This document shows, piece by piece, positions 19,956 to 39,231 of a stretch of DNA of 40,867 nt. The DNA lies in the NCBI GenBank assembly GCA_034190605.1, contig JAXINT010000063.1, positions 1-40,867 of the forward strand, given 5' to 3'. Position 1 is the stretch's first letter. Each line of letters begins with the position of its first letter. The translations under genes were made by a program, and so were the position numbers. A model generated the notes under the pieces. The model saw nothing but the letters and a program-made list of their open reading frames with translations, was not told the DNA's origin and made no database searches. This stretch comes from Candidatus Asbonarchaeaceae archaeon. Its GTDB lineage: Archaea; Nanohalarchaeota; Nanosalinia; Nanosalinales; Nanoanaerosalinaceae.

Positions 19956-19998
19956 CTTATCGACCTATAGACGTTAACGTCTCGAAGCCTTTTAAGTG
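19956..19998 (-). promoter_or_regulatory. Class-2 promoter/leader cassette (copy a)
   Basis: Coding strand: CACTTAAAAGGCTTCGAGACGTTAACGTCTATAGGTCGATAAG-ATG. It contains a TATA box, the perfect palindrome GACGTTAACGTC (19970-19981) and the TATAGGTCGATA leader. Confidence 0.6.
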
Positions 19999-20058
19999 TT
20001 TCGACATAGCGGCCGCTCCGGCTCTGGCTCGCTGAAAGCTGCCTCTCATTCGGTAGAT

Positions 20059-20079
20059 TTAGGCCTTATCAGGGCCTAA
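20059..20079. other. Inverted repeat TTAGGCC-ttatcag-GGCCTAA
   Basis: Perfect 7-bp stem with a 7-nt loop inside the 0.8-kb non-coding region. Confidence 0.6.
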
Positions 20080-20210
20080 CGACCGGTTTCTTTATAAAGT
20101 TAAAGACAAAACCGTCACTAACCGGCAGCTCAGGCCTACAACGAGGGCGTGAGAGGCACGCAGCCGTATTTAAGGCCGCCGAGCCGCCGCACAAGGCCTA
20201 AAACCCTTCT

Positions 20211-20241
20211 GTACCCACTAAAATAAGTGTACCCACTAAAA
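20211..20241 (+). repeat. Two tandem copies of GTACCCACTAAAA (18-nt period)
   Basis: gtacccactaaaa at 20211-20223 and again at 20229-20241. Related copies are GTACCCACT at 20678-20686 and GTACCCGCT at 20731-20739. All four have the same orientation. Confidence 0.8.
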
Positions 20242-20369
20242 GGCCGATTGACAGATCAAGACAAAAACTGCTAAAGTGTCAAAGGCCGCTCCACGGTCGC
20301 GCCAACATAGAAAAAACCGCTTCAGCATAGCTCCAGTCGGAAAAAATCGGGGAACGAGCAGATACCTAA

Positions 20370-20414
20370 ACACTACTTTGCTGCCTTGTAGACGGAACCG
20401 TCTCTTAGTAGTGT
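20370..20414. other. Nested inverted repeat ACACTACT..AGACGG-aa-CCGTCT..AGTAGTGT
   Basis: Outer 8-bp arms at 20370-20377 and 20407-20414. The inner 6-bp hairpin is centred on GACGGAACCGTC (20391-20402). An AT-rich tract (ctaaattaattaattactg) follows at 20438-20457. Confidence 0.7.
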
Positions 20415-20517
20415 AAAGAAAGAGAAGGTATATGTGTCTAAATTAATTAATTACTGTCCAGTAACAACGGTTTTTGGGGGTTTTCTGCATATTTTGGTGT
20501 ATATGCTTCGTCTCTCT

Positions 20518-20553
20518 CTTTATACTACTTTTTGACGGTTTTGTCCATAAGCC
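20518..20553 (+). promoter_or_regulatory. Plus-strand copy of the class-2 cassette
   Basis: CTTTATACTACTTTTTGACGGTTTTGTCCATAAGCC-ATG (ATG at 20554). It is the mirror image of the cassette at 25968..26011. The downstream 51-codon ORF (20554..20709) is basic and may not be translated. Confidence 0.4.
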
Positions 20554-20677
20554 ATGATTCTCCACGTACTCCGGTCGAGACGCTCCAGTGACGGGTTTCG
20601 GATGGTTGAAAAACCTCGAAAATCGGCGATTTCTCAGGTTCTTTATTCTGTACTGTCAGCGTCTCTCTATTCCAAGC

Positions 20678-20739
20678 GTACCCACTTCCCTATACTTTAT
20701 AAAGAATAGGCCGAAACTAAAAACAGAAGTGTACCCGCT
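20678..20739 (+). promoter_or_regulatory. Promoter of 20740..21153, flanked by GTACCCRCT sites
   Basis: GTACCCACT (20678-20686), then TATA CTTTATAAAG (20695-20704), then GTACCCGCT (20731-20739) directly before the ATG. Confidence 0.5.
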
Positions 20740-21153
20740 ATGAGCAAGGACTCGTTTACAAGACAGCTCGACCAGGTAGAGGCGCCGGAAAGCGTCAAAA
20801 AAGCACTAAAAAACCAGCAAGGAGTAAAACGGAGAATCGACCCGAAGACAGAGGCCATGCTTCAGGCGATGATGCACAGGATAGAGAAGATAGAAGAGAC
20901 CGACGGCGAGAAACTGAAGGACTTTCGCCGACGCGGCAGCGGCATCACTGCCAACCAGATAATCAACAAGGCGCTGGAGATCATGGTTACAAGCACGCAC
21001 GTCCTGTTCGATGAAGAGCGAACAGAAGAAGAGTTAACAGATGCAGAAGTGGCCTCTCACAAATTGATGGATGAAGGGAAAGAAAGCGAGTTTATAAAAG
21101 AGCATCAGATAGCTATGCTGGATGTAGCAAGCGAGGAAATAAAAGAAGATTAG
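20740..21153 (+). CDS. Putative transcription regulator (137 aa); the only plus-strand gene in this region
   Basis: Complete ATG ORF. 'GITANQIINKALEIMV' resembles the second helix of ribbon-helix-helix/CopG-like proteins (weak evidence). It is transcribed divergently from the 19955 operon, and repeated sites flank its promoter. Confidence 0.6.
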   Translation: MSKDSFTRQLDQVEAPESVKKALKNQQGVKRRIDPKTEAMLQAMMHRIEKIEETDGEKLKDFRRRGSGITANQIINKALEIMVTSTHVLFDEERTEEELTDAEVASHKLMDEGKESEFIKEHQIAMLDVASEEIKED

Positions 21154-21335
21154 AACGCGGCGCGTCTCAGCGCCACGAAAGGATCGACGGCCAGCGCCAG
21201 CTCAAAATTGATGTCGTCGATCTTCGACCTCGCCTCTTCTTTTTCTTCACTGCCGAGTAACATGTCAGCACCACCTCTGGCTCTGGTACCTGTCTTTTTC
21301 TTCCTGTCGGCCAGGTTTCTCGGGCTCGCACTCGA

Positions 21336-21476
21336 TCACGGTCTCTCACCGAACGCAACAGACGTGAGAGGCATCACGTCGTAGTTGGTTTCTTCGATGT
21401 TGTCGACTCCGAGCTCTTCGAGCACAGTTTCCTGCTTCTCTTCAGATAGGTCGCTGAAGTAAATGTCTACAGTCAT
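21336..21476 (-). CDS. Hypothetical small acidic protein (46 aa)
   Basis: The ATG overlaps the stop of 21473..22225 (ATGA). Product is MTVDIYFSDLSEEKQETVLEELGVDNIEETNYDVMPLTSVAFGERP. It is below the track's size cutoff. Confidence 0.45.
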   Translation of the reverse strand: MTVDIYFSDLSEEKQETVLEELGVDNIEETNYDVMPLTSVAFGERP

Positions 21477-22225
21477 CGGTTCGCCGACACCTCCATTCCT
21501 GAGCCTTCGACTTCTATGTCGTCGCCGCTCACGGCATCGAGCATCTCGCCGACTTTCGCGACCAGGTCGTTGTAGTCCTCGAAGTTGTCGGTGAGCTCTT
21601 CGAGGTCTCGCGTTTCGTAGTAGTTTCCTTCGTCCGAGACCTCTACCTCGAACCCAAGCTCTTCAAGCATGTCGAGCATCGCCACGACAGACATTTGGGC
21701 CTTTACGAAGTCGTTCGCGTACTGAGTTTTCGTGAAAGAGCGTCCGACCCATGTTTCTTCCCCTCTCTTCCTTCCAAGGGTCAAGATAAACGGCTCGCAT
21801 CCTTCCATGACGTAGACGGGCAGAACCATAGCCTCCCAGTCTTCGGCCACTTCCTCGTTTCCTGGCAGCGACCGCATCTTCACGCGGCCGCTGTCGTAGC
21901 CCGAAGCGTCTCGATCTTCTGGATGTTCGTCGTACCACTGGCTCTCGGACGGCATCCTGTACTGAGTGCCGTTCACTCCGGAGAGCGACGTACAGGCCGC
22001 CTTCTTATGATACTCATAGAGTGTCGGTCTGTCGTTGCTGTCGGGGCCGAGACCGTAGCCAGACTCGTTTTCGAGCGTTCCGACCTCGTACGTCAGTGGT
22101 GACGCTATCGGAGAACTCGGAGCGTCCATCCGGGTCTCGATGGCTTTATTAAAGGTTTTCAGTTTTTCTCGCAGCTCTTCGCGGCTGCCTCGGTATTTGA
22201 AGTTGTAGTGTATTGTCAGTCCCAT
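21473..22225 (-). CDS. Hypothetical protein (250 aa)
   Basis: Complete ATG ORF and first gene after class-2 cassette copy b. I recognise no motif. Confidence 0.65.
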   Translation of the reverse strand: MGLTIHYNFKYRGSREELREKLKTFNKAIETRMDAPSSPIASPLTYEVGTLENESGYGLGPDSNDRPTLYEYHKKAACTSLSGVNGTQYRMPSESQWYDEHPEDRDASGYDSGRVKMRSLPGNEEVAEDWEAMVLPVYVMEGCEPFILTLGRKRGEETWVGRSFTKTQYANDFVKAQMSVVAMLDMLEELGFEVEVSDEGNYYETRDLEELTDNFEDYNDLVAKVGEMLDAVSGDDIEVEGSGMEVSANR

Positions 22226-22267
22226 GCTATCGACCTATAGACGTTTTTGTCCTCAACCTTTATGTAC
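22226..22267 (-). promoter_or_regulatory. Class-2 promoter/leader cassette (copy b)
   Basis: Coding strand: ACATAAAGGTTGAGGACAAAAACGTCTATAGGTCGATAGC-ATG. Confidence 0.6.
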
Positions 22268-22717
22268 TTATGGACTATTCCGTCCAGAAGTGTGTTCTTT
22301 GATCGTCTCCGCTATCGACCTCTCCATGTCGCCGCGATCTCCTTCCTCTCCAGCAGAGTACAGAATCTCGTCAGTGCTGTCCGAGCTCTCTCGGAAGCTC
22401 TCAGGATCGACCACTTCTCTCAGAGCGTAGAGGTCTGTGGTCGACGTGGAAAGCTCCACCTTTCGGCTGCCCTTGTCGGTCTCGGCAGCGATCCGAACTG
22501 AGTAACCGTCAAACTCTACCTCCAGGCTGTTGAGTGTCTGGTGCTGTTCCTCAAGCTGCTCTTTCCCATGGTTCAGTTCGGCGGCCAGCTTATTCAGATC
22601 GTCTTCGAGTCGGCCATCGAAGGAGACGGTCGAAGCGTTGTGTTTCTTCACCCAGTCGTGGTTCGAGATCGAGTGCAGAAATCTCAGGATTAATCCCATC
22701 CTAACACCTCTCTGCAC
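22268..22717 (-). CDS. Hypothetical protein (143-149 aa)
   Basis: Complete ORF ending at the cassette. The start is either 22717 or the ATG at 22699. Coiled-coil-like middle region. Confidence 0.55.
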   Translation of the reverse strand: MQRGVRMGLILRFLHSISNHDWVKKHNASTVSFDGRLEDDLNKLAAELNHGKEQLEEQHQTLNSLEVEFDGYSVRIAAETDKGSRKVELSTSTTDLYALREVVDPESFRESSDSTDEILYSAGEEGDRGDMERSIAETIKEHTSGRNSP

Positions 22718-23541: not shown

Positions 23542-23585
23542 GTTATCGACCTATAGACATGTTCGTCCTTAAACCTTAAATACCT
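23542..23585 (-). promoter_or_regulatory. Class-2 promoter/leader cassette (copy c)
   Basis: Coding strand: GTCGATAGGTATTTAAGGTTTAAGGACGAACATGTCTATAGGTCGATAAC-ATG. Confidence 0.6.
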
Positions 23586-23610
23586 ATCGACACACCTGTC
23601 CACAAACTTC

Positions 23611-23655
23611 GAGAAAGGGAAAAAGAAAAGAGATACGCGTTTTAAGGCCGCGCCA
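23611..23655 (-). terminator. Hairpin plus T-rich terminator
   Basis: Minus strand after the stop at 23661 reads GGCGCGgccttaaaaCGCGtATCTCTTTTCTTTTTCCCTTTCTC. Confidence 0.5.
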
Positions 23656-23660
23656 GCCCT

Positions 23661-25967: not shown

Positions 25968-26011
25968 GTTTATCTCCTTATGGACATATTCGTCTTTAAC
26001 CTTTTTATACC
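25968..26011 (-). promoter_or_regulatory. Class-2 promoter/leader cassette (copy d)
   Basis: Coding strand: GTCGATAGGTATAAAAAGGTTAAAGACGAATATGTCCATAAGGAGATAAAC-ATG. Here the leader carries an AAGGAG SD. Confidence 0.6.
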
Positions 26012-26056
26012 TATCGACATCTCCGTCCGGAAGACTTGAAGACGGAACCGTCCAAA

Positions 26057-26067
26057 GATATATAAGG
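26057..26067 (+). promoter_or_regulatory. Plus-strand TATA box (GATATATAAGG) of the divergent control region
   Basis: Lies 4 nt after GACGGAACCGTC (26041-26052). It would place a transcription start near 26088, about 325 nt upstream of the first plus-strand ATG (26414). Confidence 0.45.
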
Positions 26068-26089
26068 TCGTGACCGAAACACTACACTG

Positions 26090-26404
26090 TAAACGGTGCA
26101 GGAAACCTAGCGCGCCCTAGGCTCAATAGGTGCCGGAAATAGGCCGAGAACCGGCGGGCGCGACATGCAGGCTCGAAACGAGTCGTGCATGGGCAGACAC
26201 ATCGAACCACCTAGCACCGCGGATTGTGGGGGAGGGGAGTACCCTCTTCTCTCTGAGAAGACGGGTTCGAGAAGAGCTCTGCTCTTCGATACTCGAACCG
26301 GCGATCCCGACCTGGAGCTGGCACGACCTGCCGCTCCAGGCATCTACGTATGAAACCACAATCAAAACCCTCAGACAGCCGTTTAGGCGACTTCTCGCAA
26401 GAGA
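26090..26404 (+). ncRNA. GC-rich, hairpin-dense element: candidate ncRNA, long structured leader or replication origin
   Basis: Stems seen by eye: cgcgccc/gggcgcg (26111-26162); a 12-bp hairpin with one bulge (26164-26191); GAGGG/CCCTC (26232-26246); TCTTCTC/GAGAAGA (26245-26261); GGTTCGAG..AAGAGC-tct-GCTCTT..CTCGAACC (26264-26299); CCTGGAGC..GGCA-cgacc-TGCC..GCTCCAGG (26311-26340). ORFs here are Arg/Pro/Ser-rich and overlap on both strands. Confidence 0.4.
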
Positions 26405-28994: not shown

Positions 28995-29025
28995 GTAGAC
29001 TTTTTCGTCTCGAAGTCTTAAAATA
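28995..29025 (-). promoter_or_regulatory. Class-2 promoter cassette, leaderless form (copy h)
   Basis: Coding strand: TATTTTAAGACTTCGAGACGAAAAAGTCTAC-ATG. TATA box ends 23 nt upstream of the ATG. Confidence 0.6.
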
Positions 29026-29688: not shown

Positions 29689-30021
29689 TTAGTCCTCAAG
29701 GACTCTGGAGCCGATCATATCCCAGTCCGTATCCTCGAAGAACTCTTCCGCACGCTCGATCTGCTTCCTAGCGTACAGCATGTCGCCGTGAGAAGTCTTA
29801 ACCTCCTTGTAAAACGCCAGTTGGTCGTCGTAATTCACTAATAGGACGTCGAACTCGCCTACACAGTTGCCTTTATCCTGTGGATGCGGCCCTGCCGGAG
29901 AGTTATCGTTTTCAAAGTATTCTGTTTCCCTGAAGGCGTCATCCCAGTAGCCTTCGTCGAGAGAGTTCTCCGCCGCCAGGTAATGCTTCGTGACGGCTTC
30001 GCTGTGATCCACAGCTATCAC
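29689..30021 (-). CDS. Possible PD-(D/E)XK-type nuclease (110 aa)
   Basis: 'GEFDVLLVNYDDQLAFYKEVKTS' fits a D...(E)xK core like those of Hjc/VRR-NUC-type nucleases. The motif match is weak. Confidence 0.35.
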   Translation of the reverse strand: MIAVDHSEAVTKHYLAAENSLDEGYWDDAFRETEYFENDNSPAGPHPQDKGNCVGEFDVLLVNYDDQLAFYKEVKTSHGDMLYARKQIERAEEFFEDTDWDMIGSRVLED

Positions 30022-30332
30022 ATCTCCAGGGCGAGCTCTACCTCTGTGTAAGCATCCGTGTCGTAGTTTCCGGTGTCGTAGATGTGCTGGCTCTGCTTCT
30101 CGACGAAGCCGAGCTCTTCAAGGCCTTCGAGTACACGCCTAGCGTAGCTTTCCGCTACTCCGTTCCACGGCTCTAGTATATCCTGTCCAGTTTCCTGAGC
30201 TATCTCTCTAGGCGAAGTATGAATCCGTGTTTCAAGTATAGCGTCTCCGACCTCTTCATGGTAGCTGTTCAGGAAGCCGTAGGTTCGTTCGTCGTCGTGC
30301 TTCATGTCGAGAACTTCTATAGCTGTCTTCAT
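30018..30332 (-). CDS. Hypothetical protein (104 aa), possible winged helix
   Basis: Complete ORF coupled on both sides. 'SYARRVLEGLEELGFVEKQ' looks like a wHTH. Confidence 0.5.
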   Translation of the reverse strand: MKTAIEVLDMKHDDERTYGFLNSYHEEVGDAILETRIHTSPREIAQETGQDILEPWNGVAESYARRVLEGLEELGFVEKQSQHIYDTGNYDTDAYTEVELALEM

Positions 30333-31414
30333 GCTCTCTCACCGTCACCCTCCAGCATTTTGGAGATGTCGTCGCTTGAAAGGTCGGATTCACCTTCTAT
30401 CGGATACATGACGCGGTTGGTCTGCCAGCTTCGGATGTCGCCATCCTCGACTTCCATGTCTACGATCCAGCCTCCGGCCTTCGGTTTGATTCCTTTACGT
30501 TCTAGGAAAGGTGTCGGGCCTTGCCATGCTCCGGCGTAGAGCACCTGGCTTCCCTCCGTCTCGGCGTTCAAGAATTGGTGGAGGTGCCCGAAGACAGTGA
30601 TGTCGGCTTTCTGCTCGTCTGGTTTGTCTCGCAGCCACGTCTGGGCTCGATAGCCTAGTGTATATGGTGCGCCTCCTGATGGATGAACTAAATCCATGTC
30701 GACTTCGCCGAGGTCGATGTTGGCGTAGGAGTCTCCCAGGAAATGCAGGTCGTCTCTTTCGGCGTCTAGCTGCTCTCCGAATCTTATTCCTGTGTTTTTG
30801 AAGAGCTGGTGGTCGTGGTTTCCTTCGATGAACAGGGTGTCGATGCCGTCTCGCTCCGGATAGTTTTCTACCACGTAGTTCTTGAGGCGATCCCAGCCGA
30901 TTGCTTCTGGCTGTAAATGGTTGCTGTGGCCTCTGTAGACGCCTCTACCGTTATTTTTGACTGTTCCGTCGCTGATGTCTCCTGCGTGGAAGACTACGTC
31001 TATGTCTTCGTCCTCAAGTCTGTCGTAGAAATCGTTAAGCGAGTCAAGCTGCTCTCCTGTGGAGCCGAGGTGTGTATCTGATATTACTGCGAAGTTGTAG
31101 TGGCCGTCTTCGTTGACCCAGCGCCAAGTGTCGTCGACCTCGTCCTCGATTTGATACATTTTCGTGCCGTATTGGTCAACTGTTTTCTCGGAGATGTCTC
31201 TTCCGGTGGCGCGGAGCTCTTCTACCACTGATCTGGCTTTGTCGCGGCTCCAGTCGTATTCTTCGGAGAAATCGTCATACGTCATTCCAGATTTTAGGTC
31301 ATCTACAAGTCCGTCTGGTATTTCATCGTCAGGCATAGAGTGGTGCCCTAGAAAAAGGTTTCGACGGGCTGCACTTAAAAGGTCAGGCATGTTCGTTTTG
31401 ACGCTTGTGTTCAA
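30329..31414 (-). CDS. Calcineurin-like metallophosphoesterase resembling the PolD small subunit (DP1) / B-subunit family (361 aa)
   Basis: Phosphoesterase motifs 'VISDTHLGS', 'HAGDISDGT..GRGVY', 'IEGNHD', 'VFGHLH'. The C-terminal 'YAGAWQGPTPFLERKGIKPKAGGWIVDME' matches the DP1 pattern 'N.gtWQ.qT.FQk..ni.P.P..v.vvd'. The start may lie at an internal Met. Confidence 0.55.
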   Translation of the reverse strand: MNTSVKTNMPDLLSAARRNLFLGHHSMPDDEIPDGLVDDLKSGMTYDDFSEEYDWSRDKARSVVEELRATGRDISEKTVDQYGTKMYQIEDEVDDTWRWVNEDGHYNFAVISDTHLGSTGEQLDSLNDFYDRLEDEDIDVVFHAGDISDGTVKNNGRGVYRGHSNHLQPEAIGWDRLKNYVVENYPERDGIDTLFIEGNHDHQLFKNTGIRFGEQLDAERDDLHFLGDSYANIDLGEVDMDLVHPSGGAPYTLGYRAQTWLRDKPDEQKADITVFGHLHQFLNAETEGSQVLYAGAWQGPTPFLERKGIKPKAGGWIVDMEVEDGDIRSWQTNRVMYPIEGESDLSSDDISKMLEGDGERA

Positions 31415-32126
31415 CCCACCGATGTCTCAGCCTGTTGTAAACCTCTGTCTTGTTCTCTCCACCGGTTTCCTGTCTGACACTGTTTTCGTCGGCTCTGAGA
31501 CCCTGGTGCTCGACTTCTGCGTCTTCGACGTGTTTGATGTCGTAGCCTGCTGAGTCGGCTCTCCATCCGAACTCGGCGCCTTCTCCCACCTGGTGCCGCT
31601 GGTCGAACAACGGGTGTAGGCCGCCGAGCTTGAAGAACAGTTTACGCGGTATGGATATGTTGGCCGTCCACATCAGTCTGGGTGTGTCTGTTGCGGCGTG
31701 TACTGGGTGTCGGTCGCCTTTTTCACCGGTTTCCGGGTCTATGAACTGTATAGGGCCGAACATCGGTTTGCTTGGCTCGAAGGCGTTCCAGTATGCTTCT
31801 AGCCAGCCTTTTTCGGGTATGCAGTCGTCGTCGAGGAAGATTAATTGGTCGTAGTGGCTGGCTCCTGCGGCGACGTTCCGCAGCATGGAGGGTCGGAAGT
31901 GTTTGTGAGGTATATGGATGACTTCGAGGTTCGATATGGCGAATTCAGGTAGTTCGTAGCCTGAGCCGTCGACTACTACGAAGACCTCGAACTTGTCTCC
32001 GATTCCTGCTCGGCCTGCTTCCTCGATGACTTTGTTGAGGGTTTCTTTCACCATTTCTTCTCTGTTGCGGGTCGGTATTACGACTGTGACGCCGCGTTCT
32101 CCGGATGCGAACGGTTCCTCAGTCAT
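31383..32126 (-). CDS. Family-2 glycosyltransferase (247 aa)
   Basis: 'TVVIPTRNREEMVKETLNKV', 'VVVDGSG' and 'RPSMLRNVAAGASHYDQLIFLDDDCIP' (DxD) are classic GT2 signatures. Confidence 0.7.
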   Translation of the reverse strand: MTEEPFASGERGVTVVIPTRNREEMVKETLNKVIEEAGRAGIGDKFEVFVVVDGSGYELPEFAISNLEVIHIPHKHFRPSMLRNVAAGASHYDQLIFLDDDCIPEKGWLEAYWNAFEPSKPMFGPIQFIDPETGEKGDRHPVHAATDTPRLMWTANISIPRKLFFKLGGLHPLFDQRHQVGEGAEFGWRADSAGYDIKHVEDAEVEHQGLRADENSVRQETGGENKTEVYNRLRHRWVEHKRQNEHA

Positions 32127-33166
32127 ATATAACCCATTTCCTCAAGTTTCTGTTTTATTTCTTCTTCGTCGCCTCTGACTTGGCTGTCTGGCCGTTCTTC
32201 TCCGATCCAATCGTCGTCAAAGCCTAGTTGGCAGCTAATTTGAAAAGCTACGTCCTGAGTCTTGAGTTTTTGTCTCTTTGGCTCTACAGTTAGTGAGTCA
32301 GGGGCAAAGCTGGATATGAAAACTCCTTTGCGGTCGTGCCGTTTCTCGTGCATCTGAAACCCGTGGTCGGAGACAATAATCCAGTGCTCGGGCTTTAAGT
32401 TCTCTATAAGGTATCTGCATGTCTCACCCATTTCCTTGTAGATTTCCCGTGTGTACGGGCCTTCAGGTTGTAGGCCTTCGACGTGTCCGGCTTTGTCGAC
32501 TCCGTGAGTTCCGAACCATGCTACGTCAGGGCTTTCTTTCCGCGCCATAGCTGTGAACTGGCCGCATTTATCCTGTTCTATCTCGCAGGCTCTTTCGATT
32601 ACTTCTTGTATTTCTTCTTCAGTCATGTTCTGGCCCCAGGGTGCGAGGCTGCGGATGTCGTCTCTCGGAAGCTCGTCTTTTATCTGGATTATGTTTCTAG
32701 GTATTTCGGCGAACTTCTTCACTGACTCGGTTCTATGATTGGCGTGAGGGCCGACATGGTAGGTCTCTGAAGTGCCAAGTGGTGAAGGGAACCCGCTTAT
32801 TGACCACCCGTTTCCGATCTGAGGAGCTGGATACGTAACTGGCATAGAATAGATTGCTTGCCGTAGCCCTTCCTCGTCGATCTTCTCGAAGATTGTCTTC
32901 TTCTGGATGTTCGAGTAGTCGAGATGCTCTTTTTTCCAGCCGTGAGAGGTTATACCGTGTTCTTCCGGCATGACGCCTGTGTACATGCTGCTCCATTCGA
33001 CGCCTGTATGTGGTGTTCCGTGTTCGTCGATGCTGTGCAGCGTCTCTTTGTAGGCTTCTCCGTTTTCGATTTGTTGGAAGAGCCAGTTCCAGGTGTCATA
33101 GTCTTCGAGGTATTGGTCGAAGAACTCGCTGGAGAAGGCGTCAATACCGATTACTAGCAACTTCAT
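32123..33166 (-). CDS. Alkaline-phosphatase-superfamily enzyme (type I phosphodiesterase / nucleotide pyrophosphatase-like, 347 aa)
   Basis: 'MKLLVIGIDAFSSEF', 'GTPHTGVEWSSMYTGVMPEEHGI' (nucleophile Thr region) and 'IIVSDHGF' match the PF01663-type pattern as I remember it. Confidence 0.6.
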   Translation of the reverse strand: MKLLVIGIDAFSSEFFDQYLEDYDTWNWLFQQIENGEAYKETLHSIDEHGTPHTGVEWSSMYTGVMPEEHGITSHGWKKEHLDYSNIQKKTIFEKIDEEGLRQAIYSMPVTYPAPQIGNGWSISGFPSPLGTSETYHVGPHANHRTESVKKFAEIPRNIIQIKDELPRDDIRSLAPWGQNMTEEEIQEVIERACEIEQDKCGQFTAMARKESPDVAWFGTHGVDKAGHVEGLQPEGPYTREIYKEMGETCRYLIENLKPEHWIIVSDHGFQMHEKRHDRKGVFISSFAPDSLTVEPKRQKLKTQDVAFQISCQLGFDDDWIGEERPDSQVRGDEEEIKQKLEEMGYI

Positions 33167-33379: not shown

Positions 33380-33685
33380 TCACTCTCCGTAGATTACGTC
33401 AATCATTTCTTCGTAAAGTTCGTAGACTTTGACGCCTCTTTCTGTGAGGGAGAGCTTGACCATGCCTCCGTTGCCGCCTCTCTCCGTGTCGATCAGTTCG
33501 AGTTCGCGGAGTGTGGATTTGGCTCTCTGGAAGGCTTTCTTGTTTACAAATTCGGTTTCTTCTGTTAGCTGTCTCTGGTTGAGCAGCTCCATTTCGTCGT
33601 CGTCTAGCCGCGGCTGGTTTTCTCGTCCTACGGCTAGGAGAACTTTGATTTCGTTCTCTGTGAAGTATGGGATGTCTTCGTTCAT
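33380..33685 (-). CDS. Winged-helix (MarR/TrmB-like) DNA-binding protein (101 aa)
   Basis: 'EIKVLLAVGRE...LTEETEFVNKKAFQRAKSTLRELELIDTERGGNGGMVKLSLTERG' shows a helix-turn-helix plus wing pattern. It is the first gene after cassette copy g. Confidence 0.55.
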   Translation of the reverse strand: MNEDIPYFTENEIKVLLAVGRENQPRLDDDEMELLNQRQLTEETEFVNKKAFQRAKSTLRELELIDTERGGNGGMVKLSLTERGVKVYELYEEMIDVIYGE

Positions 33686-33716
33686 AACGACATGTTCGTC
33701 TCGAAGTCTTAAAAAG
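33686..33716 (-). promoter_or_regulatory. Class-2 promoter cassette, leaderless form (copy g)
   Basis: Coding strand: CTTTTTAAGACTTCGAGACGAACATGTCGTT-ATG. It shares the 18-mer TTAAGACTTCGAGACGAA with copy h. Confidence 0.6.
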
Positions 33717-33724: not shown

Positions 33725-34072
33725 TCAGTAACCCAGCTTCTTCCTTTGTGGATCGACCTCGCAGTGGCACTCCTTGCAGAGAACTACTAGGTCGCATCCC
33801 GCCTCGAAATCCTCTAAATTGGCGTAGAAGGCCTGCCAGCCACCGAGTTTTCTTTTAGGGTCTCCGCCGCCGTTTTCGTGGTGCAGCTCTAGCTCGTTCC
33901 ACCGTTTTATTTCCAGGCAGCGCTCACACCACAAAAGTTTATCGAGAAGAAGTCCGTGAAGCCTCGGCAACCTGTCAGTGTTACTTCGTAATACTCTGTA
34001 GAGCAGCCATTTTCTCCTGTCTTCGTAGTACGGTATCGTGCTCGGCTGCGTCATGGTTTGTGCCTCTGACAT
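33725..34072 (-). CDS. HNH endonuclease (115 aa)
   Basis: 'CERCLEIKRWNELELHHENGGG...VVLCKECHCEV' shows a CxxC...HH..N...CxxCH HNH/zinc architecture. Confidence 0.75.
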   Translation of the reverse strand: MSEAQTMTQPSTIPYYEDRRKWLLYRVLRSNTDRLPRLHGLLLDKLLWCERCLEIKRWNELELHHENGGGDPKRKLGGWQAFYANLEDFEAGCDLVVLCKECHCEVDPQRKKLGY

Positions 34073-34077
34073 GTGGA

Positions 34078-34261
34078 TGCGCCCGCCAGGATTTGAACCT
34101 GGGTCTCCAACGCTTCTCGGCTACCGGCGCTTTTTTATCGCGCTACGGCTCGCCTGTACGACCCCGCCGAGGCAACACCGCGTGCCTAGGAGCTTTCGCC
34201 CCCCATTACCTCGATTGTCGATGGATCTGCGTAGCGTCGTTGGCCGCTGGACTACGGGCGC
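34078..34261 (-). tRNA. tRNA-like gene carrying about 100 nt of extra sequence (putative intron(s)); anticodon unresolved
   Basis: On the minus strand: a perfect 7-bp acceptor stem GCGCCCG (34261-34255) / CGGGCGC (34085-34079); UA; a D-arm GUC-CAGCGGCCAAC-GAC; a T-arm CCAGG-UUCAAAU-CCUGG (34102-34086); discriminator A. A 6-bp helix GCUACG/CGUAGC encloses 82 nt where the anticodon arm should be, and 40 nt separate it from the T-arm. I could not find a canonical U33 loop or a bulge-helix-bulge motif. Confidence 0.5.
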
Positions 34262-34435
34262 AAGAGTATGTAACGGGGTACCACGCCTCTCGGCTGCACT
34301 CCCCGTGGCGTTTTACGAGGATGCCAAGCTCGCTCATCGAAGGCCCGACCGCCTGTCGTTCCCGGCTGGGTCTGCGGTACGGTCGTTTAACCCGTTTCGA
34401 GTACCTTCGATAGAGAGATAGAAGCGAGAGGAGGG
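34262..34435 (-). ncRNA. GC-rich structured segment upstream of the tRNA-like gene (leader or separate small RNA)
   Basis: No plausible ORF. Stems seen by eye: TCGAAGG..CCTTCGA (long range), GGTACTCG..CGAcCGTACC, ACGGGG..CCCCGT, CGCC..GGCG. GC content is clearly above that of the flanking genes. Confidence 0.35.
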
Positions 34436-35061: not shown

Positions 35062-35382
35062 TTAGTTAGACACGCTGAACGGCTTTCTGCCAGAGTTGGC
35101 TTGTTCGCCGCTTTCGGTGCCGTCTTCTGATTTTGAAAAAGAGTATTCTACTATAGTATCGTTTTCTAGGTTGTCTTTGTCCTTCATTTCGTGGAGCTGG
35201 AGTTCGTCGCAGTTATCGCACCAAGTGAAGCATAGGTCTTGAACCTTCTTCGGTGTGAATATGACGTTTTCAGGGTTGTTCTCCATCGAGTCTATCAGTG
35301 ATTCGACGTCGATGGCTCTGCCGCACTGTGGGCATACCATGGCTTTGTCGCCGTAGTTTTGTCGTAGTCCGTCTAACTTCAT
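35062..35382 (-). CDS. Zinc-ribbon protein (106 aa)
   Basis: 'CPQCGRAIDV...CFTWCDNCDEL'. ATGA-type overlap with the TFB-like gene upstream. Confidence 0.6.
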   Translation of the reverse strand: MKLDGLRQNYGDKAMVCPQCGRAIDVESLIDSMENNPENVIFTPKKVQDLCFTWCDNCDELQLHEMKDKDNLENDTIVEYSFSKSEDGTESGEQANSGRKPFSVSN

Positions 35383-36050
35383 TCTCTCCCTCTTAAGACC
35401 TGATTTGTGTCAGTCATAAACTCTTTTCCAAGTAGTTGCTCAAAGTCTTCGATGTTATCTCTAATTACCACTGGAGTAGTCCCGATAGAATTAGCCACTT
35501 CTTTTTGAGTGCGCACATGCCTGATCGCAGAATTATGCTCCTGTCCGGCATAAATAGATGCTAGATACACTATTGCAGCTGCCCTGCCGGAATTTGGTCT
35601 TGCATGCTCCGGAGTTTCTCCGGACTCAATCAGTTTGGCGAGAGATTTTGCCTTCCTTTCCACTTTGGGAGGTGTTGTGTAGGGATAAAGTGTGTCTAGG
35701 CACCTTGTAACCCACGGATTCAGACCGATTTCAGTGTAATTTATCTCTTCTTTCTCTATAGAACGGAATATCTTTTTGGCGGTTCTGTTGGTAGTTTGAG
35801 GCGCCACACGAAATATTTCGGCGATTTCCGACGGCTTCACAGGGTGGTTTAAGTTCTTAATAACTAAAAGTAGGCTGCCGGATGCTAAAGCTTCTATGCC
35901 GTCGTTTTTCGACACTTCCGCTTCGTCTATCAGCTCCTCTGTTTTCTCTACCACGAAATCAAAATCGGCGTTGTCGCTTTTTTCCACGTATTTTTCTACT
36001 ATGGTTCCGGATATGCAGTTTTTTATGATTCTCTGTGTTCTCATCCTCAT
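35379..36050 (-). CDS. tfb: TFB (TFIIB)-like transcription factor core with two cyclin-fold repeats and no N-terminal zinc ribbon (223 aa)
   Basis: Repeat 1: 'ALASGSLLLVIKNLNHPVKPSEIAEIFRVAPQTTNRTAKKIF'. Repeat 2: 'NPWVTRCLDTL...SGRAAAIVYLASIYAGQ...RTQKEVANSIGTTPVVIRDNIEDF'. These match the TFB core pattern (..P.dyv.Rf...L...sGrsP..vAAAaiYiAs.....TQkevA.vagVTevTiRnryke). Confidence 0.65.
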   Translation of the reverse strand: MRMRTQRIIKNCISGTIVEKYVEKSDNADFDFVVEKTEELIDEAEVSKNDGIEALASGSLLLVIKNLNHPVKPSEIAEIFRVAPQTTNRTAKKIFRSIEKEEINYTEIGLNPWVTRCLDTLYPYTTPPKVERKAKSLAKLIESGETPEHARPNSGRAAAIVYLASIYAGQEHNSAIRHVRTQKEVANSIGTTPVVIRDNIEDFEQLLGKEFMTDTNQVLRGRE

Positions 36051-36093
36051 CCCATCGACCTATTGACTTATTCGTCTGGAAGTCTTTTATATC
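36051..36093 (-). promoter_or_regulatory. Class-2 promoter/leader cassette (copy e)
   Basis: Coding strand: ATCGAAGGATATAAAAGACTTCCAGACGAATAAGTCAATAGGTCGATGGG-ATG. Confidence 0.6.
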
Positions 36094-36104
36094 CTTCGAT
36101 GATT

Positions 36105-37049
36105 TCACTCCGCTACAACACTCTCAAACTTCTCACCACCGTTCTCAGCCGCTATATCATGCCAGTACGGGTAATAGCCGCCCTCAACCTTTACGATGAC
36201 ATCCGCCTTCAACAAGATATTCAGCTTCATCGACAGGCTTCGAGCATCAGTCTCCAAGTCCTCTGTAGTCGATCCTGGCTCCTCTCTAATCTGTTCGTAC
36301 AGCTTTCGCTCCTCGTCAGGCAGGTAATGGACACGGCTAGGCAACGTCATCTCGTCCAAGTCCACACTACTGCTCCACGACCCTACTATCATCTCGAAGA
36401 TATGCCGTGCCGACTCGTAATCCTTCTCACGTACCTCGAACTCGTCACGATCCTCGATCAACGTATTAGCCTTCGCCAAGCCAGCAACTACATTCTGGAT
36501 GTGGTGGTCGTAGCGACCTTCATAAAGCCGTACGAAGTCCGCAGGAACCATGCGCTTCACATCATCGTGAATCTGCTCCACACGGTCATAGTCAACATCT
36601 ACACGTATATCCTCTCGCAGAGTGTCGACCAGGGAGACGAAGTCAGCGTCGAAGTCTGGGAACGCGTCTTCCTCGTTTTCGTACTCCTTCTTCACCTTCT
36701 TCTTGTTGTCGTTGATGTACTCGATGTGGCTGTCAAGCTGGTCGTAAAGGATGCAACGCCCCATGAAAGCAGGGTCGAGCTTCTCAACCGCCTGCATCAT
36801 GTTCTTGATGCCGTAACTAGGGTTGCCTGTCGCCATCATGTTACCCTGCATCTGGCCTCTGATACTGCCGTTACCGGAGCTGAAAGTCCTGTCCTTGTGC
36901 TCAAGTAGTTCAAGCAGCGGTCTGAACACGTCCTGCTGCGTCTGGTTATTGTTTTTAGTCGAGTTCTGAAGCAAGTTCATAAACTCGTCGACCAGCGCCA
37001 ACCTCTGAGATTCTAGGAGGTGGCCTTCGTTCGGCCTTAAAACTCGGTG
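36105..37049 (-). CDS. mcm: MCM-like AAA+ helicase, C-terminal part (Walker B, sensor, Arg finger, winged helix) in the +1 frame
   Basis: This frame is open from 37049. 'RPNEGHLLESQRLALVDEF' parallels MCM '..GE..LEAGALVLAD.G...IDEFDK'. 'LLELLEHKDRTFSSGNGSI..QMQGNMMATGNPSYG' parallels 'alhEaMEQQtisiaKAGi...L.ar.svlAAaNP..GrY'. 'LDPAFMGRCIL' parallels 'SRFDL'. The track start at 37001 is a TTG inside the Walker B strand. Confidence 0.65.
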   Translation of the reverse strand, partial: HRVLRPNEGHLLESQRLALVDEFMNLLQNSTKNNNQTQQDVFRPLLELLEHKDRTFSSGNGSIRGQMQGNMMATGNPSYGIKNMMQAVEKLDPAFMGRCILYDQLDSHIEYINDNKKKVKKEYENEEDAFPDFDADFVSLVDTLREDIRVDVDYDRVEQIHDDVKRMVPADFVRLYEGRYDHHIQNVVAGLAKANTLIEDRDEFEVREKDYESARHIFEMIVGSWSSSVDLDEMTLPSRVHYLPDEERKLYEQIREEPGSTTEDLETDARSLSMKLNILLKADVIVKVEGGYYPYWHDIAAENGGEKFESVVAE

Positions 37050-38115
37050 TCAAACCTTTCACAGTCGAGCCTGTACCTGAGTAGATGCCCGCCGGACAGT
37101 CCATAGCCTTGTTAAGTCCTTGAAGCCAGAAGCTCTTTCCGGTCGATGTAGGGCCGAACCAGAAAAGGTGGGAAGGCCAGCCAAAATCCTCATTCACGAA
37201 AATAAGAGCTTGCGTCAGTCTCTCGAACCATGTAGGATGTCTGAAACCGCCGTGCAGCTTCTCTGCAAGGTAGTCATGGTCAGCTTTCTCCTTCCAGGCG
37301 TCGAGCTCTTCCTCCGGAATCTTCGTGATCGCGGGCTCGACGTCCTTCACAAAGATTACATCCTGATTTGTCGGTAGCGTCCGGTTCTCTCCGATCTCTG
37401 TCCGGTCGTTGATCTTGAAGTGGGTGCCTGTGATACGGCAACGCATCGGAGACAGCTTTTCACGGCTGAACAGCAGGTATTCGACGTTCTCCTGCTTGAA
37501 CTTGTAGACGAAGAAGCCTTCTGTATGCGCTTCTTTGACGTTGTAGCCTTTGTTGGGCACGCTCTGGCCGAAGTGGCGGTAGTGGAGCTCGCCGTTCGAG
37601 TCTTCGTAAACTTTGAAGACCTCGAATTTCTGCCGTGTATCGGATAATTCGACGCTGATACGGCCGTTCCACTGTTTCTGGGCTGATACGACGAAAAGTT
37701 TCTTGCCGTACGTGTCGTAGATGTCTTCTTCGAGTTCCCAGAGGTCGTCTATACGGACGCTTTTGTCGGTGTAGGCGATAGCTTCCTGCCCGTCAAGGCT
37801 CTTCGCTTTCAGCTTGAGGGCTTGGTACGTGGATTTCGGTATGTCGCCGATTAAGTCTTCGTCGTCGGTTTCTAGGACGTCTTCTTCGTCCATGGTTTCG
37901 ACGAAGTCTCTCATTTCTTTGAGCTGGATGTCGAGCTCTTCTTCTTTTTCCTCTATGAAGTCGCCGAGCTCTCCCCAGTCTTCGCTTGATACTATGCCGT
38001 AGAGACGTTCTTCGACTTTGTCGAGGCTTTCTGCGTAGCCTTCGATGTGTGCTACACTGCTTCTGTAGCTTTGGACGAGGAAGTTGAGCATTTCCTTGTC
38101 GAAGTCCTCGGCCAA
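36955..38115 (-). CDS. mcm: MCM-like AAA+ helicase, N-terminal part (OB-like domain plus Walker A)
   Basis: 'LFWFGPTSTGKSFWLQGL' is a Walker A motif. 'YSGTGSTVKGLTPSF' parallels MCM 'y.sGkGsSaAGLTAAV'. After that point this frame gives a non-homologous Arg/Pro tail, and the continuation is in the overlapping frame. Confidence 0.65.
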   Translation of the reverse strand: MAEDFDKEMLNFLVQSYRSSVAHIEGYAESLDKVEERLYGIVSSEDWGELGDFIEEKEEELDIQLKEMRDFVETMDEEDVLETDDEDLIGDIPKSTYQALKLKAKSLDGQEAIAYTDKSVRIDDLWELEEDIYDTYGKKLFVVSAQKQWNGRISVELSDTRQKFEVFKVYEDSNGELHYRHFGQSVPNKGYNVKEAHTEGFFVYKFKQENVEYLLFSREKLSPMRCRITGTHFKINDRTEIGENRTLPTNQDVIFVKDVEPAITKIPEEELDAWKEKADHDYLAEKLHGGFRHPTWFERLTQALIFVNEDFGWPSHLFWFGPTSTGKSFWLQGLNKAMDCPAGIYSGTGSTVKGLTPSFKAERRPPPRISEVGAGRRVYELASELD

Positions 38116-38118
38116 GAG

Positions 38119-38541
38119 CTACTCACCTCTCAGAGCTTCTACTATTTCTTCTTTCGTCTCGCCGTAGTCGCGCTCCAGCTTGGTTTCAGGCTCTTTTATT
38201 ATTTCTCCGTCTTCTTCTCTGTGTATTATTTCGTCTGCCAGCCTGTCGACAAGTTTGTGTACGTCGGCCCGACTGAGCTCTCTTATAAGAATTTTAGTGT
38301 TCTTGGAGAAGTTTTTTGCCAGTCGCTCCTCGAAGTGGTTTTCCTCTAGGCTTTCTGGCTGGTCTTCTTTCCGCCAGATTCCGAGATGGTAGCCGTATTT
38401 TTCGCTGTGCAGTAGTCCTGCCTCGGTTTCTACTTGTTCTTGGAATCCGCAGATGTCAGCCCATTCAGAAGGTATTGTATGTTGTAGAGATGTGGAGCGT
38501 TTCTGGACTTTGAATGTTTCTTTGTCTAGTATCTCGACCAT
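38119..38541 (-). CDS. Possible AbrB/SpoVT-type DNA-binding protein (140 aa)
   Basis: 'KRSTSLQHTIPSEWADICGFQEQVE' resembles the swapped-hairpin AbrB/MazE motif (..l.vtIP.e.a...gl..gd.v). It lies directly upstream of the MCM gene and has its own TATA box. Confidence 0.4.
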   Translation of the reverse strand: MVEILDKETFKVQKRSTSLQHTIPSEWADICGFQEQVETEAGLLHSEKYGYHLGIWRKEDQPESLEENHFEERLAKNFSKNTKILIRELSRADVHKLVDRLADEIIHREEDGEIIKEPETKLERDYGETKEEIVEALRGE

Positions 38542-38563
38542 GGTGATGGTTATGGTATTGCCA

Positions 38564-38572
38564 CTTATATAC
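38564..38572 (-). promoter_or_regulatory. TATA box for the 38541 / MCM operon
   Basis: Coding-strand GTATATAAG ends 23 nt upstream of the ATG at 38541. GACGGTTGCGTC (38578-38589) lies just upstream. Confidence 0.5.
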
Positions 38573-38604
38573 TTTCGGACGCAACCGTCTTTCCATCACA
38601 AGGT

Positions 38605-39024
38605 TCAAAAAAAGGTCGGCTTCACCTTGCCGTCAAACAAGGAGCTGCGGGTGTAACTAGCCGAATTACAGATAAAATAGAGATGGAGCCACGGGCCGCC
38701 CGTACCGGAGCGGATGTTAAAAGACACGTTATCACTGTCCTTGACGCCTTTGATGTATGCGTCGACCTGACCCTCTTTCACTGCTCGCTGCTTCGCGTAC
38801 TCCCCCAGAACCTTAATCGTAAAAAGAGGTGTGAAAGTAGTGAAGAAAAGCAAGAACGTGTCTGAAACAGGTATGCCTGTTATCACATGCGCGGAGATAG
38901 AGCCGGTTCCCGATCCTAAAGCGGCAAGGGCGCCGTTCAGAGCTATACCGAGATAATCGACCTCGTAGATGTTTTCCGCTATCTTCTCTAGTTTTTCCCT
39001 TTTGTCGATATGATCTTCGGGCAT
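38605..39024 (-). CDS. Membrane protein (139 aa, about 2 TM segments)
   Basis: 'LGIALNGALAALGSGTGSISAHVITGI' and 'FLLFFTTFTPLFTIKVL'. It has its own TATA box, and a T7 run overlaps the stop codon. Confidence 0.6.
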   Translation of the reverse strand: MPEDHIDKREKLEKIAENIYEVDYLGIALNGALAALGSGTGSISAHVITGIPVSDTFLLFFTTFTPLFTIKVLGEYAKQRAVKEGQVDAYIKGVKDSDNVSFNIRSGTGGPWLHLYFICNSASYTRSSLFDGKVKPTFF

Positions 39025-39045
39025 AAAAGACGGTTTCGTCGCCTT

Positions 39046-39055
39046 GTTTTTAAAT
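39046..39055 (-). promoter_or_regulatory. TATA box for 38605..39024
   Basis: Coding-strand ATTTAAAAAC ends 22 nt upstream of the ATG at 39024. Confidence 0.5.
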
Positions 39056-39060
39056 CCGGT

Positions 39061-39198
39061 CTATGGGAAGCACGCTGGCACAAATAGCTCTCTGTATAGG
39101 CTGGTTGCGAAATTTTCTAGGCCGAGGCCTATTGCTATACCTGTGAAAAAAATTGCTGTGGCTGCTGCGCCAGTCTTCCAGTCAAATTCTGTGGACAT
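39061..39198 (-). CDS. Mini membrane protein (45 aa, 1 TM segment)
   Basis: Product is MSTEFDWKTGAAATAIFFTGIAIGLGLENFATSLYRELFVPACFP. A cassette-type promoter sits 23 nt upstream. It is below the track's size cutoff. Confidence 0.4.
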   Translation of the reverse strand: MSTEFDWKTGAAATAIFFTGIAIGLGLENFATSLYRELFVPACFP

Positions 39199-39231
39199 AT
39201 TCGTCTATTTGTCCTCAAGGCTATATTAAAG
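39199..39231 (-). promoter_or_regulatory. Class-2 promoter cassette (copy i) overlapping the fibre stop codon
   Basis: Coding strand: GTCGAAACTTTAATATAGCCTTGAGGACAAATAGACGAAT-ATG. GACGAATATGTC spans the start codon. Confidence 0.45.

Follow-up and report, generated by a model that had tools for sequence, protein, structure and literature searches.

Repeated TATA–dyad cassettes as putative operator-bearing promoters in an uncultured tailed virus of halophilic archaea

Archaeal repressors usually act between the TATA box and the transcription start, where they block recruitment of RNA polymerase. Short sites of this kind serve as lysogeny or early-gene operators in archaeal viruses, for example the F55 repeats of SSV1 at the T5, T6 and Tind promoters and the repressor sites of phiH1 and phiCh1, whose repressors likewise block polymerase recruitment. 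Among bacteriophages, the early-promoter stem-loops (PeSL) of T4-type phages and the start-associated sequences and stoperators of mycobacteriophages are found as many short promoter, leader or operator copies across one phage genome. In the tailed haloarchaeal virus HF2, multi-copy intergenic repeats of 29–58 bp have been experimentally proven to be promoters, their position is conserved among close relatives, and repeats of classes I and II were interpreted by their authors as sites for virus-encoded temporal regulators (PMC8707807, in which phiH1 is also cited). SIRV2 and other crenarchaeal viruses have virus-specific regulatory sequences at early genes, controlled by Aca8-type repressors (Nat Commun 2024, PMC11065993). 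Described here is a family of repeated promoter-like cassettes in contig JAXINT010000063.1 (GenBank assembly GCA_034190605.1, positions 1–40,867), the whole stretch of 40,867 nt being referred to as the window. The window is the genome of an uncultured tailed virus of halophilic archaea, in which no fewer than ten transcription units begin with a copy of the same predicted core-promoter cassette. Judged from their sequence, these are, on balance, probably co-regulated promoters in which a virus-specific operator for a dimeric putative regulator, most probably encoded by the virus itself, is embedded in a duplicated strong promoter.

The cassettes form a single sequence family with a common geometry, in the order TATA box, 7–8 nt (G-R-Y-T-T-like in most copies), the dyad rGAC-N6-GTCy and the ATG. 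A first-pass annotation of the window had placed a shared module at eight minus-strand ATGs (19955, 22225, 23541, 25967, 28994, 33685, 36050 and 39198) and on the plus strand at 20518–20553, and the module is present in all nine; the family also takes in ATG 11036, with a full cassette, and ATG 39024, whose copy is weaker. A blind repeat search over the whole window returned the cassettes as the top direct-repeat families (D1, D2, D3 and D5, 36–67 nt long with three to five copies each). Their occurrence is far from random: GAC-N6-GTC-NATARG is found nine times against 0.04 expected (100 dinucleotide shuffles, maximum 1), with all nine copies located in an intergenic gap or at the 3′ edge of an open reading frame (ORF), and GACRWWNANGTC is found ten times against 1.07 expected. 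A 23-nt position weight matrix (PWM) gives 19 matches of at least 15 bits in the window versus 0–1 per sequence in 20 first-order Markov random sequences with the window’s dinucleotide transition frequencies, and leave-one-out scores reach 16–26 bits for copies a, b, c, d, g, h, i and k. Equal density in coding regions, which would have counted against the first-pass reading, is not what is seen: the bare GAC-N6-GTC occurs in non-coding DNA at five times its coding density (4.8 per kb, from 17 sites in 3,567 nt, versus 0.9 per kb, from 34 sites in 37,300 nt).

Conservation within the family is concentrated in the dyad. An alignment of 12 sequences, built without the pattern, has the three GAC columns among only five that are invariant and GTC at least 90% conserved, while the six-base spacer and the TATA sequence are variable. 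Over 18 dyad sites the consensus is r-GAC-G-r-a-w-n-y-GTC-y-A-T, with a purine before GAC in 16 of the 18 and a pyrimidine after GTC in 13; this flanking bias is two-fold symmetry beyond the search pattern and makes the site a 14-bp pseudo-palindrome with some gene-oriented asymmetry. Four of the 18 sites lie upstream of a TATA box and three are orphans in divergent control regions. Copies b, c and d each have a second dyad exactly 33 bp upstream of the first (22273, 23589 and 26016), and their TATA box is thus bracketed. The operator reading is favoured because the symmetric half-sites are more strongly conserved than the TATA box, the spacer is variable, sites are found away from the TATA-to-start position, and virus-specific palindromes occupy that fixed position in relatives. 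The suggestion, made in the first-pass annotation, of a sequence-specific factor acting between TATA and start is supported by the same pattern, in which GAC and GTC are the most conserved columns around a variable A/T-rich spacer, the dyad also occurs alone, and different palindromes stand at the corresponding place in relatives, all consistent with such a factor. The properties expected of an operator are dyad symmetry, conserved half-sites (here short and partly asymmetric) and a variable spacer, together with multiple sites that overlap or flank core promoters, some of them independent of the promoter repeat, and each of these is seen in the window. The individual sites are:

11037–11066, minus strand: cassette k, leaderless; TATA box TTTATAA (11060–11066), 8 nt, dyad GACGCATCTGTC (11040–11051), 3 nt, ATG 11036; family D5, leave-one-out PWM score 16.1 bits; heads the operon downstream of the capsid gene.
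19956–20005, minus strand: cassette a; GTCGAAA resembling a B recognition element (BRE; 19999–20005), TATA box TTAAAA (19990–19995), 8 nt, dyad GACGTTAACGTC (19970–19981), 14-nt leader TATAGGTCGATAAG, ATG 19955.
20090–20116: orphan dyad GACAAAACCGTC (20105–20116) adjoining a palindromic TATA box, CTTTATAAAG, within the 598-bp divergent control region.
20382–20425, minus strand: p′, an inverted copy of the plus-strand cassette, with dyad GACGGAACCGTC (20391–20402) and no ORF directly after it; inverted repeat I1, 44 nt, 75% complementary.
20511–20553, plus strand: cassette p, weak; TTTATA (20520–20525), 8 nt, dyad GACGGTTTTGTC (20534–20545), CATAAGCC, ATG 20554.
22226–22284, minus strand: cassette b, family D3; leader, dyad (22240–22251), TATA box (22259–22265), second dyad GACGGAATAGTC (22273–22284).
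23542–23600, minus strand: cassette c, family D3; leader, dyad (23556–23567), TATA box (23576–23582), second dyad GACAGGTGTGTC (23589–23600).
25968–26027, minus strand: cassette d, family D3; AAGGAG leader, dyad (25983–25994), TATA box (26002–26009), second dyad GACGGAGATGTC (26016–26027).
26041–26065, plus strand: third dyad of the control region 25968–26404, GACGGAACCGTC (26041–26052), just upstream of the plus-strand TATA box ATATATAA (26058–26065).
28995–29025, minus strand: cassette g, leaderless, family D5; TATA box (29018–29025), 8 nt, dyad GACGAAAAAGTC (28998–29009), 3 nt, ATG 28994.
33686–33715, minus strand: cassette h, leaderless, family D5; TATA box (33709–33715), 8 nt, dyad GACGAACATGTC (33689–33700), 3 nt, ATG 33685; the first gene of its operon encodes a small winged-helix-like protein (weak helix-turn-helix, HTH, matches).
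36051–36092, minus strand: cassette i; TATA box (36085–36092), 8 nt, dyad GACGAATAAGTC (36065–36076), 14-nt leader AATAGGTCGATGGG, ATG 36050; the first gene encodes a TFB-core-like protein.
38565–38589, minus strand: dyad GACGGTTGCGTC (38578–38589) directly upstream of CGAAAG and TATATAA (38565–38577), in the promoter of gene 38119–38541.
39025–39055, minus strand: cassette l, weak; TATA box (39047–39055), 6 nt, dyad GACGAAACCGTC (39029–39040), 4 nt, ATG 39024; leave-one-out PWM score 10.1 bits.
39194–39238, minus strand: cassette j, degenerate, family D1; GTCGAAA (39232–39238), TATA box (39222–39230), in-register GAC-N6-ACG (39202–39213), and a perfect GACGAATATGTC (39194–39205) that overlaps ATG 39198 of a 45-codon ORF.

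Several details of the earlier description change at this resolution. The perfect palindrome reported for copy a is indeed present at 19970–19981, and the exact word said to be shared by g and h is real but is 20 rather than 18 nt long (TTTTAAGACTTCGAGACGAA). The plus-strand copy p has the expected layout (TATA, 8 nt, GAC-N6-GTC, CATAAG) but scores only 3.8 bits when left out of the PWM, and copy j contains the module although its in-register site is degenerate and its perfect dyad lies out of register. The element GTCGA(A/T)A, read as a BRE in several copies, can be maintained as such at best for a and j; in b, c and d the corresponding GTC(G/C)ATA is the 3′ half of the second GAC-N6-GTC, which occupies the BRE position there. 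Of purine-rich BRE candidates, copies a and j have GTCGAAA, copy i has ATCGAAGG and gene 38541 has CGAAAG; g, h and k have none. Structural-gene promoters had been described as free of these elements and the cassettes as marking an early/middle set; this is not fully right, as a full cassette (k, ATG 11036) stands within the structural block. The split into early/middle and structural promoters is not clean because cassette k heads a structural operon, just downstream of the capsid gene, and gene 38541 carries the dyad ahead of its TATA box. The place of cassette k weakens the claim of a temporal programme.

The cassettes come in two forms that differ between the dyad and the ATG. In the leaderless form (g, h, k and l) this gap is 3–4 nt, and in the long form (a, b, c, d and i) it is a leader of 14–15 nt, comprising an 11–12-nt insert with a Shine–Dalgarno-like AGGTCGAT (AAGGAG in copy d) 6–8 nt before the ATG. 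The further leader TATAGGTCGATA noted in the first-pass annotation is most simply read as a short 5′ untranslated region with a Shine–Dalgarno-like ribosome-binding site, AGGT(C)GAT, because copy d has AAGGAG and the window’s internal genes have GGAGGTGA-type Shine–Dalgarno sites. In g, h, k and l the end of the AT-run lies 22–23 nt before the ATG, a distance similar to that in the non-cassette promoters of the portal, terL (large terminase subunit), 18361, 4628 and 38541 genes, which have the same geometry without GAC or GTC, and in agreement with the haloarchaeal TATA position determined by primer extension in HF2 (PMC8707807); leaderless mRNAs are therefore predicted. This is also the form of haloarchaeal core promoters generally, in which an AT-rich element ends about 22–26 nt before the start and many mRNAs are leaderless, and it upholds the earlier reading of the operon starts as archaeal-type promoters. 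T-rich tracts stand ahead of several cassettes, for example upstream of c and k, which fits separate transcription units. The TATA box is followed by GGTTT also in the promoters of two relatives (L006 and L007, below) outside their cassettes, so this part is generic promoter context and not cassette-specific.

Two other interpretations of the dyad were discarded. One, modelled on the HF2 beta motif, takes its spacer as the true TATA box; starts would then fall inside ORFs, and the upstream AT-run is already at the same distance from the ATG as in non-cassette promoters. An RNA hairpin or terminator is likewise rejected, the arms being 3–4 bp long and upstream of the predicted start; Rfam and tRNA scans gave no match within the cassettes.

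With +1 placed at the leaderless ATG, the dyad would extend from about −16 to −3, with its A/T spacer (positions 2–3 are mostly A/T) over −11/−10, the place of the haloarchaeal WW element. The dyad would be an operator bound by a dimeric, sequence-specific protein, most probably encoded by the virus. Once TBP and TFB were in place, a protein in this position would keep RNA polymerase from being recruited or the DNA from opening. Approximately 12 promoters would switch together as one regulon. The second dyad at 33 bp, the dyad upstream of the 38541 TATA box and the dyad-only sites would fit cooperative binding or position-dependent action. The cassettes are, in these terms, predicted promoters with predicted start sites, and the putative bound protein would repress rather than activate, possibly with a temporal meaning.

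Among described systems, HF2 is the nearest in design. It too is a tailed haloarchaeal virus in which repeats with BRE/TATA and a conserved start-site block face downstream operons, temporal control has been proposed to operate through two promoter classes that virus-encoded factors recognise, and other promoters are without the extended pattern; a tRNA-like element is also present in its genome. As in HF2, the window has several gene-oriented intergenic repeats of at least 30 nt with a TATA box and start-site block. In contrast, the alpha, beta and gamma motifs of HF2 have no homologue in the window cassettes (the HF2 repeat IR4 shares with the window just CGTCTAT and AAGACTT), the viruses are unrelated at the level of terL (no deposited phage above 28% identity), the core of the window element is a dyad that is also found upstream of TATA and as orphan sites, and half of the window copies are leaderless. 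Moreover, the HF2 repeats are proven promoters, whereas the window cassettes are predicted from sequence, and the conservation of repeats in sequence and position among related viruses that characterises HF2 was not found in the relatives compared here.

The crenarchaeal viruses provide a second parallel. In SIRV2 and the others, consensus sequences of 30–75 bp surround a nearly identical TATA/BRE core ahead of numerous genes within a single virus. Flanks that vary from virus to virus were taken to reflect different regulators, and inverted repeats have been proposed as repressor sites. The host phylum and virus realm are different, however, and the motifs there mark immediate-early anti-defence genes, whereas in the window a structural operon lies behind one of the cassettes; a homologue of Aca8 was not detected in the window. 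The window cassettes are homologous neither to the HF2 repeats nor to the crenarchaeal sequences. SSV1, phiH1 and phiCh1 share with the window short repeated or dyad sites over the TATA-to-start region of several viral promoters, including divergent regions, but they have few sites at one switch region versus 18 sites over about 12 promoters here, and neither an integrase nor a repressor was recognised in the window. PeSL and the mycobacteriophage elements are similar in that many copies of a short conserved element stand in front of genes. These are, however, bacterial sigma-70 or repressor systems, none of which has TATA/TFB geometry; PeSL form a true stem-loop after an early promoter, while the arms of the window dyad are 3–4 bp and upstream of the predicted start, and the start-associated sequences act at the ribosome-binding site. 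As the design in the window is the same as in HF2 and the crenarchaeal viruses, it is a clear new example rather than a new principle.

The genomic setting is that of a tailed virus. The window encodes terL, a portal and an HK97-type capsid protein, almost all of its genes are on the minus strand, and the encoded proteins are strongly acidic. Its 45-nt ends (1–45 and 40823–40867) are mutual repeats, 96% identical (repeat family D16); the window therefore represents an entire genome of ~40.8 kb, either circular or terminally redundant. The host is a halophilic archaeon, probably a nanohaloarchaeon; this call rests on the proteome, the NCBI bin label and the archaeal-type promoters because no provirus was found among species-representative genomes, in which a terL profile matched only remote bacterial prophage terminases. 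No near-identical sequence was present in the phage database at the DNA level, and a tblastn search of deposited phages with terL returned bacterial phages only, the best below 28% identity. About fifty metagenomic relatives have terL at 47–58% identity, one of them in an assembly also recovered from sequencing run SRR402046. Seven relative loci (L003, L006, L007/L008, L009, L213, L214 and L215; terL ~50–55% identical, 37–51% GC) were compared with the window and have nothing in common with it beyond the structural module and a few further genes. Upstream of terL, six of these loci carry their own repeated TATA-to-ATG cassettes, and in L213 no repeated cassette was seen:

L009, 4758–8861: TTTATAAA-tga-TGGTAACCA-ACTAGTA..TAGGTGTTTGAAAAATG, four copies.
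L006, 5453–6218: a 48-nt cassette, two copies.
L003, 3339–5894: TATATAAGT.TTGGGT....TAACA.TCACACCATG, two copies.
L214, 3796–6595: TATA..TGACA-N5-GGGATGAGACGATG, four copies.
L215, 1650–2910: TATA-GTTG-ATC(C/A)CAATTA(A/T)G(G/T)GAT-AGAACC-ATG, two copies.
L007/L008, L007 2711–6207: ATCCCA-N4-TGGGAT, seven sites, between TATA and ATG or just upstream of TATA.

The position of these elements is more constant than their sequence. In at least three of the loci, L007, L215 and L009, a palindrome lies between TATA and the predicted start, and its sequence is virus-specific except for one type, ATC(C/A)CA-N4-TG(G/T)GAT, common to L007 and L215; the two copies in L215 differ by symmetric changes in both arms (CCC/GGG versus CAC/GTG). 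In a search for a regulator varying together with operator type, L007 and L215 were found to share, uniquely, two small proteins (54–59 and 76–77 aa) without recognisable DNA-binding features. At 50–55% terL identity the relatives have different cassettes and only one copy of the window type, in L007/L008, where in a single promoter the relative's own palindrome lies upstream of TATA and a GGAC-N6-GTCC of the window type lies downstream at the spacing seen in the window (21.2 bits, with ~0.1 such matches expected over all seven loci). Scans of public viral contigs (two) and metagenomes (one) for the cassette pattern gave only single chance matches; one of these, TATA with GAC-N6-GTC and TATAGGTCGATA in L131, was rejected because it is inside a glycosyltransferase-like ORF of a 38% GC, non-halophile-looking contig. 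The 13-mer AGGTCGATAGCAT, found in the leader of b and at a site upstream of an L215 TATA box, was not used, about as many matches of this kind being expected by chance.

The hybrid promoter of L007/L008, which joins two operator types, also bears on the view that the repeats are mainly recombination substrates, with regulation secondary. Like T4-type PeSL, for which this has been proposed, they would be promoter cassettes that move and reshuffle modules of genes within and between viruses. The cassettes are at the borders of small gene blocks, most of which are without homologues in the relatives, as this view would have it. It is nevertheless hardly probable: there are no close relatives showing mosaic joints at cassettes, arms of only 3–4 bp form no real stem-loop, and conservation peaks at two short symmetric triplets instead of being even along the repeat, as a substrate would need. 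Recombination is in any case compatible with the operator model and not exclusive of it.

A number of observations weigh against an operator. The half-sites are 3–4 bp, and GAC and GTC are frequent codons in the window, so coding DNA too contains the bare dyad, at 34 places. Symmetry is incomplete, as GACG(A/G)A and GTCyAT follow the orientation of the gene, for which shared ancestry of the copies could also account; likewise, the 33-bp spacing could be inherited, as b, c and d are one 67-nt repeat family (D3). Candidate regulators have domain matches that are all below thresholds, and both structure models are poor (pLDDT 50 and 44). Searches of viral contigs, metagenomes and species-representative genomes provided no relative close enough for phylogenetic footprinting. 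Finally, the conserved start-site block of HF2 is needed for basal promoter activity without any viral protein (PMC8707807), and part of the conservation in the window cassettes may be basal too.

The last point can be extended to the cassette as a whole. Duplication would then have spread nothing more than a strong basal promoter and its initiator and leader, with GAC/GTC and GTCTATAGG belonging to the promoter-proximal and initiator region that host TBP, TFB and RNA polymerase recognise. Conservation would reflect copying and selection for high expression, and a dedicated regulator would not exist. This account, the main rival, is possible but rather unlikely. In its favour, class I intergenic repeats of HF2 act as promoters in Haloferax in the absence of viral genes and mutation of the start-site block abolishes activity (PMC8707807), IR4 of HF2 has CGTCTATTAGAG ~11 nt after TATA, resembling CGTCTATAGG in the window, spacer positions 2–3 of the dyad are A/T in most copies and match the haloarchaeal −10/−11 WW element, and the generic TATA-GGTTT sequence is shared with promoters of relatives. 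A purely basal role, however, leaves unexplained the dyads upstream of TATA, the orphan dyads without promoter context and the different palindromes at the same position in relatives, and the window’s non-cassette promoters share the geometry without either triplet. An operator within a duplicated promoter is therefore preferred over a promoter alone.

Candidate DNA-binding proteins are encoded behind cassettes or, for the third below, a dyad-bearing promoter, all with sub-threshold domain matches:

33380–33685, minus strand: candidate regulator of 101 aa, behind cassette h; HypR/Rrf2/TbsP HTH matches at E 0.01–0.02, all below cut-off.
35379–36050, minus strand: TFB/TFIIB core-like protein of 223 aa, behind cassette i, without Zn-ribbon and B-reader.
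38119–38541, minus strand: candidate regulator of 140 aa, called AbrB-like in the first-pass annotation; its promoter has the dyad upstream of TATA.

HTH matches of the first of these and of the protein at 30018–30332 (E 0.0015–0.04) are below cut-offs, and the AlphaFold model of 33380–33685 is uninformative (pLDDT 50). For 38119–38541 there was no Pfam match and one weak NCBIfam match (YeiL, E 0.012, far below cut-off), while a low-confidence model (pLDDT 44) has an N-terminal beta-beta-alpha-beta-beta-beta pattern. The protein at 35379–36050 matches NCBIfam PRK00423 at E 6e-8 over positions 163–304 of 312 (32 bits versus a cut-off of 384), Pfam TFIIB at E 0.005, below cut-off, and a PDB TFIIB core at E 0.05. 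It is 29% identical to residues 170–314 of a genuine 348-aa TFB, which has its Zn ribbon at 28–67, and its own N-terminus has one cysteine before residue 45, so no Cys-X2-Cys pair. A protein-guided search of viral contigs and a word search found no relatives, and an exhaustive HMMER search of 1.8 billion representatives returned a single homologue, a cellular TFB (E 4e-4).

A truncated TFB-like basal factor in a virus could compete with host TFB, and the cassette might accordingly be a promoter class read by this protein, which would replace or compete with host TFB at TBP-bound cassettes and could contact G-R-Y-T-T just downstream of TATA (a BREd-like position) or GTCGAWA upstream. The match to the two-cyclin core of TFB/TFIIB, the location of the gene behind cassette i and the semi-conserved bases flanking TATA within cassettes would all suit such a role. 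It is nonetheless improbable, since the protein is without the Zn-ribbon and B-reader needed for polymerase recruitment and start-site setting, its family scores are all below curated cut-offs, its sole homologue is one cellular TFB, and GGTTT follows TATA also in the early regions of relatives, where tblastn with the window proteins found no TFB-like gene. A broader proposal, equally a long shot, is that the cassettes and the truncated protein together represent a virus-encoded rewiring of basal transcription which, with a dyad-binding partner, switches the promoter class. If so, the TFB core would dock on TBP-bound cassettes and read the conserved bases flanking TATA, the system would be an archaeal counterpart, in a nanohaloarchaeal virus, of the appropriation of sigma and anti-sigma factors by phages, and the different operator types of the clade would be immunity-like specificity groups.

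Under the preferred operator reading, three features go beyond the precedents: the TATA box bracketed by two dyads 33 bp apart, the clade-wide exchange of operators at constant geometry, and the setting in a probable nanohaloarchaeal virus group. In the literature searched, no promoter or regulatory analysis of nanohaloarchaeal viruses was found, and the one in-depth description of such viruses that was found is without mention of promoters or motifs. The window and its relatives offer a ready-made set of predicted promoters in which the operator varies by virus while the geometry is fixed. Questions that can be put to it are the identity of the regulators among the small viral proteins, a possible correspondence between operator types and groups of immunity or exclusion, the sets of co-expressed genes (a route to early or anti-defence genes, as for SIRV2), and the form that the core promoter takes in nanohaloarchaea (DPANN).

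The dyad-only sites (20105, 20391 and 26041) are inside the two largest divergent intergenic regions. One of these, the 598-bp region 19956–20553, has four dyads, an inverted pair of p-type cassettes 85 bp apart with an AT-rich stretch between them, a 27-nt inverted repeat (20040–20066 and 20132–20158) around the palindromic TATA box, four copies of GTACCCRCT, and two exact direct repeats of TGTACCCACTAAAA (20210 and 20228), to which copies beyond the region, at 20674 and 20727, are related. The region resembles a control region and may be a switch region, a replication origin or both.

Elsewhere in the window, a 363-nt GC-rich non-coding gap (34073–34435, minus strand) ends in a tRNA-like element, especially 34078–34130, just before ATG 34072. 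The element scores 27.8 bits with the Rfam tRNA model (E 0.0014), just below the gathering score, and has acceptor and T arms but no anticodon arm; ARAGORN found no tRNA in it. A stretch perfectly complementary to the 3′ acceptor strand over 7 nt (GCGCCCG, with the D-arm-like GUAGUCCAGCGG after it) is located ~125 nt further upstream, so the element may be a tRNA-like gene with an insert or the remnant of an att site. Taken whole, the gap shows no unusual degree of structure (z −0.59). HF2 has a similar low-scoring tRNA-like gene that is thought to be attP, though no integrase was recognised in the window, and a comparable T-arm-like sequence is directly upstream of ATG 3394 in L009. Directly downstream of the element, 33725–34072 (minus strand) encodes a 115-aa protein with CxxC pairs and an HHENG motif, HNH endonuclease-like by eye, for which there was no Pfam match at E up to 1. 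The 110-aa protein encoded at 29689–30021 (minus strand) has a PD-(D/E)xK-like motif by eye (EFDVLL...YKEVK) and is the product of the only gene outside the terS-to-tail block conserved in four of four relatives (tblastn, 32–64% identity), its L214 homologue having a faint Hjc match. Lastly, the operon behind cassette h (30329–33166, minus strand) encodes a metallophosphoesterase, a family-2 glycosyltransferase and a type I phosphodiesterase/nucleotide pyrophosphatase, enzymes that may modify DNA or the cell surface.

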